Source: a plasmid. From it: a stretch of 64,000 nt of DNA. Position numbers: made by a program. The DNA is taken from sequence record NZ_CP109675.1; one strand, given 5' to 3'. This document shows positions 30,001-36,000 of the stretch, one piece after another; the first letter of the stretch is position 1; the number at the start of each line of letters is the position of its first letter.

Positions 30001-33000
30001 CTAACAGGCGGATGATACCGCCTGCCAGGTTATCAGTTACCTTTTCCACCCTGCAAAATGAAATGACCGCCGATATACACCGCACGCTGGCAGGTCATGT
30101 AATAGCATATTTCGTCGATCACCTGCTCCGTTCTTAATTCCCGTTGACCATTTTCACGTCGACGGGCGTTAATAATATTTTTGTACTGACGCAGGATGTC
30201 ACGGGTCTGTGGATCAAGTTTCATTTTTATTCTCCTTTGTGGCGGGGCCCTGCCCCGCCTCTGACATCAACCGTTGAACACGTAGCCATCCAGAAATACC
30301 AGACCATCCAGGAACAAATCCCGCGCCCAGGCTCCCATATCGAAATAGCAACGCAGCGATTCCGGAATGTCATTGAGAAGGCCGCACTCTTCTGCCATAG
30401 TCCAGGCGTAGTCCTCTTCGCTCTCAGCTTCTCCGCAATAAGCATCCTCGAAGGCGTCATAATCACACTCTCCGGAGTATTCCACCCAGGCAATAAATGC
30501 AGCATCCATACCGTCTTCTACTGCGCGCTTGTAGGCTTCAATGAAATTCCAGTCAACGGAAGATTCGGATGCAAATGCTGACGGGATCCCTTCCCAGTCC
30601 TGGAACATGAGTTCCGGGTCGGATTCATTGGCGTGCAGCTCGTTGCAGGCTTCCAGAAACTCTGCTTTATCATCAAAGTCGGTGAGGTCAAACCATTTAC
30701 CGTAGAGGCTACCGCAGTTGTATTTGTGGTATGTACCTACATAAATCGCCGGGGTGGTAGTGTTCATAAAACTCCTCCAGTGTCTGTGTCGTCTGAGTTC
30801 CGGCTTACGCCGTGCCGACACGACAGCCCGACTTCGAGCGGAAGATGCAGGGGCGACACCGGAGGCCGCAGCGCAGATAAACAGCGATGACGGTCTGGAC
30901 GGTTCTCCCGCGAATATTGAGCGGGAGAACGACGGGAAGAACGGCATCAGGCGTAAAAATCTGCGACCGGGCGAGGATGGCGGCGGAGCGAACCCTTGCA
31001 TCTGAAGCGATCGGGCTAAAGTGAAGGCACGGCGTTAGCCGCAGACCGCACGGACGTTTTCACCTGCGTCCCCGTAACATCGTGGAGGGGGCGCCGGTAA
31101 AGCGGAGCGTGCGACATCCTTTTCGCAATAAGGCGGGGCGCATTGCCCCGCCCAAAATCAGGCGGCAATCCGGATGCCGGAGAAGGATTTCATCATCGCG
31201 TCAATCTCGGTTCGTGCGCTGCTGACCACATCCCGCAGCCAGTGTCTGTCAAACCAGTCGCGGGATGGGCTGTCAGGGTGACGAAGGGCATAAGGCACGT
31301 GGGTCTGCCCGACTGTACGGCCATTGCATTCCAGACGGATTTGCAGACGGCGAAAGGTTTCCTTCCCGTCGAGTACCGCTTTAAGACGCGCGTCGAGCGT
31401 CTCATTATCCCACTGCGCATCATCCTGCACCTGCTCCACTTCCGTTACTGTCAGGAGGAAATTACGGGTTCGGCGGGTAAATACCAGCGGTTCAGCGGCG
31501 GGGCGCAAGGCTTCCATCAGGCGGTATCCGGCGGATGCCACGCAGCTACAGACGTGGTTAATCTCGTCACGCAGGGCTTTCAGCAGACAGAGGATATGTT
31601 TCGTGGACATAGCCTCAGGGCAATTATCATATTCAAGCGAAATGGTTCCGGCATGAGCCTTACGATGCCCCAGCGAATTACGATAAAGGCGGACAATCAG
31701 TTCACTTCCTGCCAGTAATGACAGCAGCACCTTCATTGCCTGATCGGACATCAAACCACGCAGTGCAATCTCAGGTAACAGACGCTGCAACTGTAAAGCA
31801 TCGAGCTGGCCATAGAACGCAACGCCTTCTCCTCTGGAGTAATTCAGGCTTGTATCGATATCCATGTTGGCTGGCCAGCCGCGGGCTACGAGCGTGTTTC
31901 GGGTATGACGGTGCATAAAGCGGTAAGCAATGGTCATGATATTCTCCTCTTCTGAATGCGGCGACGTCTTCGCCGTGCCGACACGACAGCCCGACATCGA
32001 GCGGAAAATGCAGGGGCGACACCGGAGGCCGCAGCGCAGATAAACAGCGATGACGGTCTGGACGGTTCTCCCGCGAATATTGAGCGGGAGAACGACGGGA
32101 AGAACGGCATGAAGCATTAAATCACTGCGACCGGGCGAGGATGGCGGCGGAGCGAACCCTTGCATTTGCAGCGTTCGGGCTAAAGTGAAGGCACGGCGCT
32201 CACATCCGCCGCGCCAGCGCGGCATAAAAAGCGGAGTTAACGACATCCTCTTTCGCTGTGAATTGTCACCGGTTGCCGGGGACGCTCCCCCGGCCGTTCT
32301 CAGGCTACCAGCGCGTCTTTCAGTGCGTAGACGTCATTCCTTGCTTCCTTTACGGAATCGGGTTCAGGCCGCCCGGCCTCCCAGGCCATTCCGGCGCGAT
32401 GCTCCAGCTCACACTCATAGTCGCGCAGGACGCGTGCAAGTAAAGCTGCGGGTACACTCACCTGACGGTTTGCCGCTTCCCGCTGATGGGTCAGGAGATC
32501 GCTGACAGTCAGATTATTTACCCCCTCCTGGCGGTATTGCGTCATTTTCATTTCACCAAGCGCCTTCATCACCGCCCGGATTTCAGCCTCGTCCGGTTCT
32601 GGCTGGGTTTCACGGCAGGCCACGCTAATCCCCTCTTCCGTCCAGACCAGCAGGACCAGGGGTTCGTCAGACGTGAACATGGTTTCAAGCTGTACACAAA
32701 GTTCTTTGCGGGTTCCGTACATTTTTTTATCTCTTTCGTAAGTGGTTACAGGCCGGGCATCAGCCCGGCAGGGTCAGTCAGCCCTGAAAGGTTTCGTCCA
32801 GCACCAGGGCTTCGCGGTAGGCTTCCAGAAGCAGGGTGTTGATCCGGCGCAGGGTCTGGGCGGCCATACGTTCAGCCAGCGTTGCCGCGTCGTGCCGGTG
32901 CTGAGATTCGAGGCGGTTCAGCAGCATCCGCACGTCACACATGGCATTGCTGAGCTCGGCCACGTCCGCGCGCAGGGATTCAAGGCCCGGGTAGTTCATG

Positions 33001-36000
33001 CCGCCTCCGGATAATCAGGGTAAAACGTACCGTCATTGGCCGCCGGCATCCTTCTCGCCCGTTCAACCTGTGCCAGACGGCGAACGCCGGCGGCGTGGTA
33101 CTGCTCAAGCATCTCGATCCCGATATAGCGGCGGCTGGCTTCGGCGGCGGCCACGCAGGTGGAGCCGCTACCGGCGAACGGGTCAAGGACAATGGCCCCC
33201 GGACGCGTGAGCGATTCAATCAGTGGCCGCAGGCTCTGCACCGGCTTCTCCGTCGGATGGTGTCTGTTGCCCGTGTATTTCCAGGGGATCACGTCCGGGA
33301 TGGGGCGGTCCGGGGTTTGCGGTCGCCCCTTCGCGAGCAGGTAAGCGTTCTCATGGGTGTAGCCCACGAACGTTGATTTGGAGGCATAACTCTTCGCAAA
33401 AACGATATGGCCAACAACGCGGAACCCGGCCGATTTCCACGCATTGAGAAACAGATCTGCGCGGTTCCATGCGTAAAAGCTCACCATCAGACTGTCGTTT
33501 TTGAGTACGCGGTACATTTCGTGGCACGCTGGCTGAAGCCATTCCGACGAATTGTCCCCGGCCAGAGTGCGACCGGTACGGTCCTTAAAGCCAACCAGAT
33601 ACGGGGGATCGGTAAGAATAAAATCAACGGCACGTGCCGGAAAACGGGACATCACCTGCACGCAGTCACCCAGGATATAACGGGACATAGACACACTCCT
33701 CTCTGATATGCGGCACCCTGTTGCGCCGTGCCGCCACAAAAACCCGGCTCTGAGCGGAGGGCGCAGGGGCGACGCCGCAAGCCGCAGCGCAAGCCTTTCA
33801 CGGGCTGAATGCACCGTGAAAGGTGCGAACGGGTGAGGACGGAGACAACGTGAACCCTTGCGACCGCAGCGGCCGGGTTAGCGTGAAGGCACGGCGTTGA
33901 ACACGCCGCCGGCTGGCGGCAGAAAGGCGGAGGGCACCGACATCCTTTGGTACTGATTCTGGTAGCTGAAGTAGCCTCCCGTGTATGACAGAATGACCAT
34001 AAGTGCGTGTCAGTACACCACTTTGTAGGATCATAAGCCTGGTATGTTTTGGGACGCCTCCGGTCGGTGGCGTCCTTTTTTCCGTTAGCCCCCCTTTACG
34101 TGGTCGATAGCGAACTGCAATGTGTCCCAGTTAAAACCGATGCAGGCATCATGGCTGTGGTAACAGACACGCATGGCTTCAGCAATCTCCCCCTCTGTCA
34201 GGCTGTCATTGAGGGACATAAAGTCATCAGCCAGCCAGAACGTTCCCATACACAGCGCATCCTGCGGATACTGCTGTAGCCGTGCGATGTGATCTGCCAC
34301 GGTTACTCCCTCGCGGCAGGCAGATAGCGACGGCAGCACACGATCGGCAATGTCATTCCAGTTCCACTCTTCGTCCTCCGGAACTGCCTCTTGAATAGTG
34401 CCGGTTTCCACACCCGGCATCAGGGAAAGCTGCTCCAGCACCTCCCCCAGGTAAAGTCGTTCTCCGCAGGCATCCTCACTCCACAGATAATGGTTGTTGA
34501 TATACACGGCAAACTCGCCGTTGTTGAGTTCAATACAGGTCAGTCTGAACATGGCTGTGTCCTAAGCATCCGGCACCCAGTTGCACCGTGCCGACACGAC
34601 AGCCCGACTTCGAGCGGAAGATGCAGGGGCGACACCGGAGGCCGCAGCGCAGATAAACAGCGATGACGTTCTGGACGGTTCTCCCGCGAATATTGAGCGG
34701 GAGAACGACGGGAAGAATGGCATCAGGCGTAAAAATCTGCGACCGGGCGAGGATGGCGGCGGAGCGAACCCTTGCATCTGAAGCGATCGGGCTAAAGTAA
34801 AGGCACGGCGGGGAACTTCTTTAGGCAACATAGAGTTAAAAAATGGGCAAAGCAAAAACTTGAAAGTACACTCAATAAAGTAATAATACTGTATATAAAT
34901 ACAGTTCGGAGGTGCCTATGTTTGAATTATTGCGTGTCGATTGCGAGCCGGAAATTATCCCAATCCCTCTTTATAGCGAGGGATGCCCGGCGGGGTTCCC
35001 GTCCCCGGCGCAGGACTATGTCGAAGCCGAACTTGACCTCAACGATTACTGTATATCCCGACCCAGTTCGACATATTTTGTGCGAGCTATTGGTAATTCC
35101 ATGACTGATATTGGGCTACATTCTGGCGATCTGATGATTGTTGATAAAGCCGAAAATGCACACCACGGCGATATCGTTATAGCTGAGATTGAAGGTGAAT
35201 TTACTGTTAAGAGATTATTGTTGAAACCGAGACCAGGGTTACAGGCAATGAATCCAGCCTACCCTACTCTATGGCCAGAACCTGAGCAGCTACAAATTTT
35301 CGGTGTCGTAACTGCCTTTGTACATAAAACCCGGGGACATGACTGATGTTCGCCCTGGCAGATGTGAACAGCTTCTATGCGAGTTGTGAGAAGGTCTTTC
35401 GTCCTGACTTACGTGATAAACCGGTGGTCGTTCTTAGCAATAATGATGGTTGTGTAATAGCCAGATCGAAGGAAGCGAAACAGCTTGGGATCAAAATGGG
35501 GATTCCCTGGTTCCAGCTGAAGACAATGCAGTTCCCGGAGAAAGTGCTTACGTTTTCCAGCAATTATGAGCTTTACGCGAGTCTGAGCAACCGGGTCATG
35601 GCACATCTGGAAGAACTGGCGCCCCGCGTAGAGCAGTACAGCATCGACGAGATGTTCCTGGACATTCGCGGCATCGATGGCTGTACCGACTTTGAAGATT
35701 TCGGCCGGCAGCTGCGCGAGCACGTCCTAAGAGGAACCGGACTGACAATTGGCGTTGGGATGGGGCCAACAAAAACTTTAGCAAAATCAGCGCAATGGGC
35801 TTCAAAAGAGTGGCCGCAATTTGGGGGCGTGCTGGCCCTGACTACTGACAATCTTCGTAGGACGGAGAAACTGCTCTCACTGCAGCCAGTAGAGGAAATC
35901 TGGGGGGTTGGTCGCCGCATAGGCAAAAAGCTGAATACATACGGCGTGACGACTGCGCTACAGCTGGCGCGCATGAATCCTGCCTTTGTACGCAAAAACT

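Follow-up and report, generated by a model that had tools for sequence, protein, structure and literature searches.

Organization of the leading region

The window analysed here is the whole 64,000-nucleotide stretch taken from NZ_CP109675.1, and belongs to the Enterobacter hormaechei plasmid pEh7_3, which is IncI-like (MOBP). Its oriT was located by alignment with the oriT region of pESBL (80% identity, with long invariant runs) and from the gene layout. Because the oriT core and its nick region lie on the + strand, we take + to be the transferred strand (T-strand) and the interval from 19.6 to 34.8 kb to be the leading region; the gene order runs from oriT through an anti-defence island to umuDC, the same order as reported by Samuel et al. 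2024. The features are as follows.

19475–19560, + strand: oriT core, with the nick region CATCCTG|T at 19544–19551
23913–24289, + strand: Frpo*5/7-type hairpin in the naming of Samuel et al. (blastn, 78% identity, E 1e-74)
29031–29377, + strand: class 1 (true Frpo/ssiD-type) single-stranded DNA (ssDNA) promoter upstream of DUF905-ParB-psiB-psiA (blastn and hairpin scan)
30267–30767, - strand: ardA, 166 aa, downstream of copy A (Pfam ArdA, E 2.6e-33, and annotation)
30805–31034, + strand: copy A, long (class 2-type) hairpin before ardA; basal stem CCGTGCC (30810–30816) pairs with GGCACGG (31026–31032)
31158–31937, - strand: 259-aa ORF, downstream of copy B
31968–32198, + strand: copy B, class 2-type hairpin (long form) 5' of the 259-aa ORF
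32300–33688, - strand: methyltransferase operon downstream of copy C, comprising an N6/N4 DNA methyltransferase (32996–33688), a small ORF and DUF1380 (32300–32722)
33724–33896, + strand: copy C, short (class 3-type) hairpin of ~173 nt before the methyltransferase operon
34085–34552, - strand: 155-aa ORF, downstream of copy D
34581–34810, + strand: copy D, class 2-type hairpin (long form) 5' of the 155-aa ORF; outermost in the island, adjoining umuDC

Four GC-rich repeats are present where the original prediction had placed them, each 5' of one of four minus-strand genes or operons of the leading region, and the basal stem (CCGTGCC) starts 33–41 nt before each of the four ATGs, with the RBS in between. 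The identity of 95–97% proposed for the long copies holds approximately, the gapped values being 94.7% (A/B), 98.2% (A/D) and 93.0% (B/D); short copy C is about 60% identical to the other three. Copies A, B and D contain the palindrome TTCTCCCGCGAATATTGAGCGGGAGAA, at 30903, 32066 and 34679, and copy C contains CTTTCACGG...CCGTGAAAGG at 33795/33814, such that the palindromes were described correctly in content, but were lettered out of coordinate order (the first had been given to 'A, B and C', the second to 'D'). The repeats stand well beyond chance (profile E-values 1e-41 to 1e-70), and a profile search of the window found no further family copy. The recurring spurious peptide that had been noticed, QMQGFAPPPSSPGR, does arise on translating the minus strand of all three long copies. 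Pfam searches of the ORFs crossing the repeats gave no match, and a reading of DUF1472 as translated repeat was dropped on that account. Pfam searches likewise gave no family for either the 259-aa or the 155-aa ORF; the former is 31% identical to a 258-aa pESBL leading-region protein, and the N6/N4 DNA methyltransferase shares 69% amino acid identity with the pESBL methylase downstream of the class 3 promoter (M.EcoGIX-like).

A Wen-style sliding-window hairpin scan of the leading region (sparse background, cut -65 kcal/mol) recovers copies A, B and C together with the class 1-type elements; copy D misses the cut owing to an AT-rich flank. Of the T-strand 300-nt windows in the leading region, the most stable is that at 23913–24289 (-82.9 on + vs -58.3 on -). 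A scan peak at 21.2–21.6 kb is multibranched with no single hairpin, and was not counted as a promoter.

Folding and promoter motifs of the transferred strand

Each copy folds end to end to form one long imperfect hairpin. For copy A the fold energy is -71.8 kcal/mol on the + strand (z -8.2) compared with -63.0 on the minus strand; DNA-fold z-scores are -8.2 and -4.6, and none of 200 shuffles is as good. The T-strand fold is the more stable in 31 of 32 copies, by a mean difference of -6.8 kcal/mol. The original prediction had proposed folding the minus strand, and this is the wrong choice: with the nick region on + and nearly every copy folding better there, it is the + strand, transferred and serving as template, that must fold, and the hexamers lie on its 3' arm. 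The predicted combination of a stable hairpin with promoter-like hexamers was nonetheless found, on that strand. Each of the 33 profile hits, spread over 10 replicon segments, is on the strand that serves as template for the neighbouring genes.

Covariation was examined in 27 homologs from the 10 replicon segments. Compensatory double changes are present at 27 of the 46 consensus pairs, and 94.4% of cells are paired, as against 31–40% when the partners are slid; none of 500 shuffles matches the observed values. A 3-bp helix inside the -10 region covaries too. The covariation shows selection for a single-stranded fold, DNA and RNA not being distinguished by covariation alone.

The promoter cores, all on the + strand, are positioned as follows.

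Copy A, 30996–31022, in the 3' arm: -35 TTGCAT (30996–31001), 15-nt spacer, -10 TAAAGT (31017–31022)
Copy B: -35 TTGCAT (32160–32165), -10 TAAAGT (32181–32186)
Copy C: -35 TTGCGA (33858–33863), -10 TAGCGT (33879–33884)
Copy D: -35 TTGCAT (34772–34777), -10 TAAAGT (34793–34798)

TTG is present in all 32 copies and TAnnnT in 27 of them; the spacer is 15 nt in 27 of the 32 and 16 nt in the other five. Positions -11 to -9 fall in a conserved internal loop of the 3' arm, which in copy A is a 3x3 loop containing the AAA of the -10 hexamer, and transcription of this copy is predicted to start near A31029, templated by T30813. The corresponding predicted starts of copies B, C and D are at ~32193, ~33891 and ~34805, templated at ~31976, ~33729 and ~34589 respectively. 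Pairing at the first T of TTG is G.T in 19 copies and A.T in eight, an arrangement viable on the + strand only. With a 15-nt spacer and a 3/6 match at -35 this would be a poor duplex promoter, and on the gene-facing strand of the duplex the sequence is CTGCAT-19 nt-TGTCGT, which is no promoter. No sigma-70-type duplex promoter was predicted facing any of the four genes.

Relationship to described ssDNA promoters

We consider it very probable, judging from sequence, that the four repeats are hairpin ssDNA promoters, of class 2 (A, B and D) and class 3 (C). Promoters of both classes have already been described and validated in pESBL and F (2024–2026), so that the finding, though correct, is not new. 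Class 2 and class 3 promoters were mapped by 5'RACE in the IncI1 plasmid pESBL, class 2 lying 5' of ardA and klcA and class 3 lying 5' of M.EcoGIX (Wen et al. 2025, NAR gkaf1299); in F, class 2 corresponds to ssp2, 5' of yfgB/ardB, and class 3 to ssp3 (bioRxiv 10.64898/2026.01.09.698686). Among the candidates of Samuel et al. 2024, Frpo'4 is class 2, and Frpo*1 and Frpo*3 are class 3. The pESBL and F homologs have mapped transcription starts, which lie within the base of the hairpin, show strong zygotic induction in transconjugants and are inactive as duplex.

The 27-copy profile matches pESBL only at the three sites assigned to class 2 or class 3 by Wen et al. 2025 (E 1e-29, 4e-29 and 1e-24; template strand in each case), and matches F (NC_002483.1) at the ssp2 and ssp3 sites. 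The pESBL (L012) class 3 site is at 3274–3441 (E 1e-24), and a profile of long copies only finds 7097–7334 (E 6e-41) and 14044–14281 (E 2e-40) in the same plasmid and 11482–11719 (E 3e-40) in F. Frpo'4 matches the class 2 sites in pESBL and F, and Frpo*1 is 75% identical to copy C (E 2e-27), with further matches to both arms of A, B and D. Overall identity between the four copies and the elements validated in pESBL and F is just 63–67%, although they share the core motifs.

Copies A, B and D resemble class 2 in their length (~230 nt), basal stems, -35 TTGCAT, 15-nt spacer and TAAnnT -10 with an internal loop, as well as in strand and in their place before an anti-restriction gene, copy A preceding ardA as in pESBL. 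They differ in being 66–67% identical overall to the pESBL and F elements, and in number, with three copies in the leading region here compared with two in pESBL and one in F. The pESBL homolog of the 259-aa ORF has no hairpin hit directly upstream and follows methylase genes, whereas here copy B precedes the ORF. Copy C, like class 3, is short and positioned before the orthologous methyltransferase, and its identity is 65% to pESBL class 3 and 63% to F ssp3, compared with 56–57% to class 2; the gene order behind the promoter differs, being DUF1281-hyp-methylase in pESBL and F but starting with the methylase here.

The repeats had originally been described as Frpo/ssi-like, but this does not hold, as none of the four copies is hit by F ssiD, F ssiE or ColIb ssi1-3 in blastn (word size 7, E<=0.01). 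The class 1 references instead match 29031–29377, which is 70% identical to F ssiD over 357 nt (E 9e-32). Class 1 (F Frpo1/Frpo2 = ssiD; ColIb-P9 ssi1-3) shares with the four repeats a T-strand hairpin that rebuilds a sigma-70 promoter, the leading-region location and the orientation rule, but there is no detectable sequence similarity, and class 1 elements measure ~330 nt and carry an A/T-rich motif, GCAAAAAGTTTTTG, at the apex. The 29031–29377 element is part of the same zygotic-induction system as the four repeats and belongs to a different family; the hairpin at 23913–24289 looks class 1-like.

Proposed function on the incoming strand and alternative roles

The predicted function as promoter hairpins on the incoming single strand is supported by the conserved anatomy and by homology to the 5'RACE-validated pESBL and F promoters. 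We think it unlikely that the repeats are primarily ssi signals or replication-control structures that prime or block complementary-strand synthesis, with downstream transcription being secondary. Such a role is suggested by the history of Frpo, first found as an ssi whose transcripts prime DNA synthesis (Masai and Arai 1997, as cited in later work), and by F ssp2, the homolog of the long copies, which stalls complementary-strand synthesis until UvrD resolves the stall. However, an ssi role does not exclude promoter function, for which the homologs have mapped starts and zygotic induction; the invariant -35 and -10, their fixed spacing and the 33–41 nt to the ATG correspond to the needs of a promoter, beyond those of a mere obstacle; and ssp3, a short form, shows no roadblock.

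A structure acting at the RNA level, such as a processing site, terminator or insulator in read-through transcripts, or a + strand antisense RNA, is improbable. Covariation is blind to RNA versus DNA and the minus strand also folds well (z -6.9), but the wobble pairs and fold energies favour the + strand, which is antisense to the mRNAs, and the mRNA would lack the hairpin because the inferred +1 lies in the basal stem. Moreover, Rfam at gathering thresholds found sok alone in the whole window and no family on the repeats, and terminator-like sites number five, compared with 4.4 expected from shuffles. It is scarcely credible that the repeats are MITE-, REP- or ERIC-like selfish palindromes, or a recombination scar, without strand-specific function: they are, like such elements, imperfect palindromes of 170–250 bp that are intergenic, multi-copy and sometimes read as spurious ORFs, and one copy contains a synteny break between close relatives, but all 33 copies point the same way with respect to the neighbouring gene, the pairing is maintained by compensatory changes with asymmetric conserved motifs on one arm only, and 98.8% of E. 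coli occurrences are on plasmids (6681 places, vs 80 on chromosomes, in 5426 genomes). The family is present in 67% of complete E. coli genomes and in at least 5000 PLSDB plasmids.

As ssDNA promoters, the repeats would act during conjugation, when the + strand is expected to enter the recipient 5' to 3' from the nick at ~19550. Each repeat, while single-stranded, would fold into its long imperfect hairpin, in which the 3' arm would provide the non-template strand of a sigma-70 promoter (-35 TTG, 15-nt spacer, -10 TAnnnT), the 5' arm would provide the template strand, and the conserved 3x3 internal loop would keep -11 to -9 unpaired. RNA polymerase would then start in the GC-rich basal stem and transcribe out of the hairpin toward oriT, via a ~45-nt 5' UTR and the RBS, to express ardA, the 259-aa ORF, the M.EcoGIX-like methylase operon and the 155-aa ORF. 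Complementary-strand synthesis would remove the hairpin and turn the promoters off. The long form probably also stalls this synthesis, prolonging the single-stranded, expressing state, by analogy with F ssp2; promoter activity of these four copies and a roadblock effect of the long ones are both inferred.

Wen et al. 2025 (NAR gkaf1299) describe class 3 as unlike all other hairpins. A class 2-only profile finds both arms of the class 3-type copies (E 2e-13, 3e-10 and 1e-9), and in a close relative a short form takes the place of long copy D before the same gene. These observations hint at a common, swappable core of classes 2 and 3. Tentatively, and with some doubt, the two classes might be regarded as one superfamily with a shared basal promoter module (CCGTGCC...GCAGGGGCG...GCCGCAGCGCA // GACCGGGTGAGG...CCCTTG-N18-TAnnnT...GGCACGG) and an exchangeable distal module, in which a long stem adds a roadblock, arm recombination swaps the forms and shuffles anti-defence cassettes, and three long copies represent stacked roadblocks. 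If so, having three long copies in a row in this plasmid would extend the time spent single-stranded and expressing.

The window, which holds four class 2/3 copies, a clear class 1 element and a class 1-like hairpin, is a clean further example from an Enterobacter IncI-like plasmid that adds little beyond the 2024–2026 literature, although the comparative data provide independent covariation support for the published hairpin models. ssDNA promoters matter for the spread of resistance plasmids because anti-restriction, methylase and SOS-inhibitor genes are expressed from them in an early burst, ahead of any action by host defences.

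Position of the four repeats and the transferred strand

Four related non-coding repeats had been predicted 5' of leading-region genes, and all are found where they had been placed:

30805-31034: copy A, long form, 5' of ardA
31968-32198: copy B, long form, 5' of a 259-aa ORF
33724-33896: copy C, short form, 5' of a methylase operon
34581-34810: copy D, long form, 5' of a 155-aa ORF

Copies A, B and D share 93-98% pairwise identity and copy C (~173 nt) is ~60% identical to the other three. Both the palindromes and the recurring peptide QMQGFAPPPSSPGR match their earlier description, with one slip in lettering: by coordinate the diverged copy is the third and not the fourth. 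The downstream ATG lies 33-41 nt from the start of each basal stem, with the RBS between them, and a profile search of the window found no family members beyond these four. A RefSeq 'hypothetical protein' (WP_032623563.1, 30760-31005, + strand) falls wholly within copy A, with ardA on the other strand; it has no Pfam match and in all likelihood represents a spurious CDS. The long - strand ORFs 30267-31001 and 31158-32246 are likewise over-extended at the N-terminus through the repeats.

The 8-kb segment of the window that was queried is 100% identical, as the reverse complement, to Enterobacter hormaechei plasmid pEh7_3 (NZ_CP126853.1, 97 kb), which has a MOBP relaxase and IncI-type transfer genes. 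The layout of the window is as follows:

16404-19103, - strand: relaxase (annotation)
19125-19460, - strand: mobA, nikA-like (annotation)
19475-19560, + strand: IncI1-like oriT core, 80% identical to the pESBL (IncI1) oriT region, with long invariant runs
19544-19551, + strand: MOBP-type nick region CATCCTG|T, a motif in the oriT core
~19.7-34.6 kb, - strand: DUF5983, N6-methylase, hok/sok, psiA, psiB, ParB-like, DUF905, theta, ardA, 259-aa ORF, DUF1380, methylase and 155-aa ORF genes
beyond this gene run, + strand: umuDC

We take CATCCTG|T to be the nick site from established knowledge of IncP/IncI oriT; a second occurrence of the 8-mer at 4024 is probably chance. Annotated genes between ~19.7 and 34.6 kb are almost all on the - strand and transcribed toward oriT; the only others are a handful of short hypothetical ORFs on the + strand, including one within copy A. 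Because the nick region is on the + strand and the genes are on the - strand, the + strand is both the transferred strand (T-strand) and the template for all leading-region - strand genes. The - strand, chosen for folding in the original prediction, is therefore the wrong one, and the more stable fold is on the T-strand in 31 of 32 copies (mean difference -6.8 kcal/mol).

The sok antitoxin RNA of the hok/sok module also lies in the leading region (24951-25122, - strand; Rfam RF01794, 96.6 bits). Just 5' of umuD, at 34860-34910 (+ strand), a sigma-70-like promoter, TTGAAA-16-AATAAT, is followed by a LexA-box-like CTGTATATAAATACAG. An anti-defence island flanked by umuDC, as in the window, was described by Samuel et al. 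2024.

Predicted hairpin and promoter anatomy

Along its whole length, each repeat is predicted to form one long imperfect hairpin. The fold of copy A has an energy of -71.8 kcal/mol (z -8.2) for the + strand, compared with -63.0 (z -6.9) for the - strand; copy C folds at -57.3 kcal/mol (z -4.6). Read from loop to base, the 3' arm of the + strand carries TTGCAT-15 nt-TAAAGT (TTGCGA-15-TAGCGT in copy C), and this arm has RNA-like polarity for a transcript running into the gene downstream. A perfect 11-bp helix holds the TTG, whose first T is paired with G. The three bases following the TA of the -10 sit in a 3x3 internal loop, and after them comes the basal stem, which is GC-rich and 9-10 bp long. 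In duplex DNA the gene-facing strand (the reverse complement of the 5' arm) reads CTGCAT-19 nt-TGTCGT, without a -10, and a consensus scan found no sigma-70-type promoter on the - strand between 30200 and 35000.

These features are conserved. In an alignment of 27 full-length copies, 27 of the 46 consensus pairs stay paired through changes on both sides; paired cells amount to 94.4%, compared with 31-40% once the partners are displaced by 1-3 columns, and none of 500 shuffles reached the observed pairing values. Within the -10 region of the long copies a 3-bp helix covaries (CAC/GTG, TAC/GTA, CAT/ATG) and positions -11 to -9 remain unpaired. TTG is present in all 32 copies and TAnnnT in 27. 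The spacer measures 15 nt in 27 of the 32; the other five, which are CAnnGT variants, have 16 nt. Pairing at the first T of TTG is G.T in 19 copies and A.T in 8, and a G.T pair here is viable on the T-strand only.

Relationship to known ssDNA promoters

The proposed role as hairpin promoters was essentially right, but the Frpo/ssi assignment by homology was not, as F ssiD, F ssiE and ColIb-P9 ssi1-3 give no match to the four repeats. Using the class 1 (Frpo/ssi) and candidate reference sequences of Samuel et al. 2024 (Supplementary Table 2), we find that the repeats match the low-certainty candidates Frpo*1 and Frpo*3, and that a further candidate, Frpo'4, has matches at the class 2 sites of both pESBL and F. 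Six ssDNA promoters were identified in pESBL by early-transconjugant RNA-seq and 5'RACE, with class 1 comprising ssi1-3/Frpo, class 2 located 5' of ardA and klcA, and class 3 located 5' of M.EcoGIX; F conserves classes 2 and 3 (Wen et al. 2025, PMC12672017). Our family profile matches exactly the three non-class-1 sites of pESBL (E 1e-29, 4e-29 and 1e-24), on the template strand. In F its hits lie upstream of the ArdB/KlcA gene and of the methylase operon, at the ssp2 and ssp3 sites of a 2026 preprint. Identity to class 2/ssp2 is 66-67% for copies A, B and D, and identity to class 3/ssp3 is 63-65% for copy C. The methylase downstream of copy C is 69% identical to a pESBL methylase, which we infer to be M.EcoGIX as the sole DNA methylase annotated in the pESBL leading region. 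The repeats belong to ssDNA-promoter families already predicted in 2024 and validated in 2025-2026.

The family occurs in at least 5000 PLSDB plasmids by BLAST. Most of the listed matches come from Klebsiella; Escherichia, Enterobacter, Serratia and Yersinia are among the other hosts. Among complete E. coli genomes it is present in 3659 of 5426, at 6681 plasmid and 80 chromosomal places. A profile search of nine loci from IncF, MPF_I and MOBP backbones gave 29 further copies. All 33, counting the four in the window, lie on the strand that serves as template for the neighbouring leading-region genes, and many are directly 5' of ardA, klcA-type antirestriction genes, methylase operons or 155-aa ORF homologs. 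Two Serratia MPF_I plasmids (L003, L008) and Yersinia ruckeri pYR4 (L005) have 4-7 full or partial profile hits per leading region, among them short variants whose 5' arm has gained 2 nt and which have CAnnGT for TAnnnT and a 16-nt spacer.

The published ssDNA-promoter mechanism is the best-supported explanation. The incoming T-strand would fold into a hairpin whose reconstituted promoter would be recognised by sigma-70 RNA polymerase, and the pre-melted -10 should aid open-complex formation on DNA lacking supercoiling; transcription would leave the hairpin at its base and enter the anti-defence gene, and the promoter would be switched off once the DNA became double-stranded. The rival reading of a pure ssi or roadblock role does not exclude promoter function, with which it is compatible. 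F ssp2 is a transient barrier to complementary-strand synthesis that is resolved by UvrD (shown for ssp2, not ssp3; 2026 preprint), and by analogy the barrier role of the long form may extend to copies A, B and D. Three observations disfavour a role at the RNA level: the strands are asymmetric, no Rfam family matches, and terminators are not enriched. The uniform orientation and the restriction to plasmids rule out a selfish repeat of the MITE/REP type.

Other leading-region hairpins and exchange of forms

Three further structured segments lie in the leading region:

29031-29377, + strand: true class 1 Frpo/ssiD homolog (F ssiD, 70% identity over 357 nt, E 9e-32)
23913-24289, + strand: class 1-like hairpin (Samuel et al. 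candidates Frpo*5/7, 78% identity, E 1e-74)
21230-21620, + strand: GC-rich segment with strong predicted ssDNA structure (-87 kcal/mol, z -3.45)

DUF905-ParB-psiB-psiA lie directly downstream of the first, whereas in F and pESBL the class 1 element precedes ssb; tblastn with F SSB found no ssb anywhere in the window. The second is the most stable T-strand 300-nt window of the leading region (-82.9 kcal/mol, versus -58.3 on the complement), with a small ORF (23640-23912, - strand) downstream. The third, in an unannotated gap, is multibranched and not a single hairpin, for which reason we do not count it as a promoter, and none of the reference promoters matches it.

Class 3 has been called unlike all other hairpins (Wen et al. 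2025, PMC12672017). However, a profile built from long (class 2-type) copies only finds copy C by both arms (E 2e-13 each), and pESBL class 3 and F ssp3 by their 3' arms (E 3e-10 and 1e-9); classes 2 and 3 therefore share a basal promoter module. In the close relative OW849180.1 (L014), a short class 3-type hairpin (10694-10879 in L014) that is 96% identical to copy C occupies the exact site of copy D, 5' of the same 155-aa gene. Long and short forms have been swapped at this orthologous site, in keeping with the report that ssp3 can substitute for ssp2 with equivalent promoter strength (2026 preprint). Synteny of OW849180.1 with the window stops inside the repeat, at about window position 34651, which suggests recombination between repeat arms. 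The shared module, the exchange of forms at an orthologous site, and the presence of a class 1 Frpo and a class 1-like hairpin in the same window are small additions beyond the literature.
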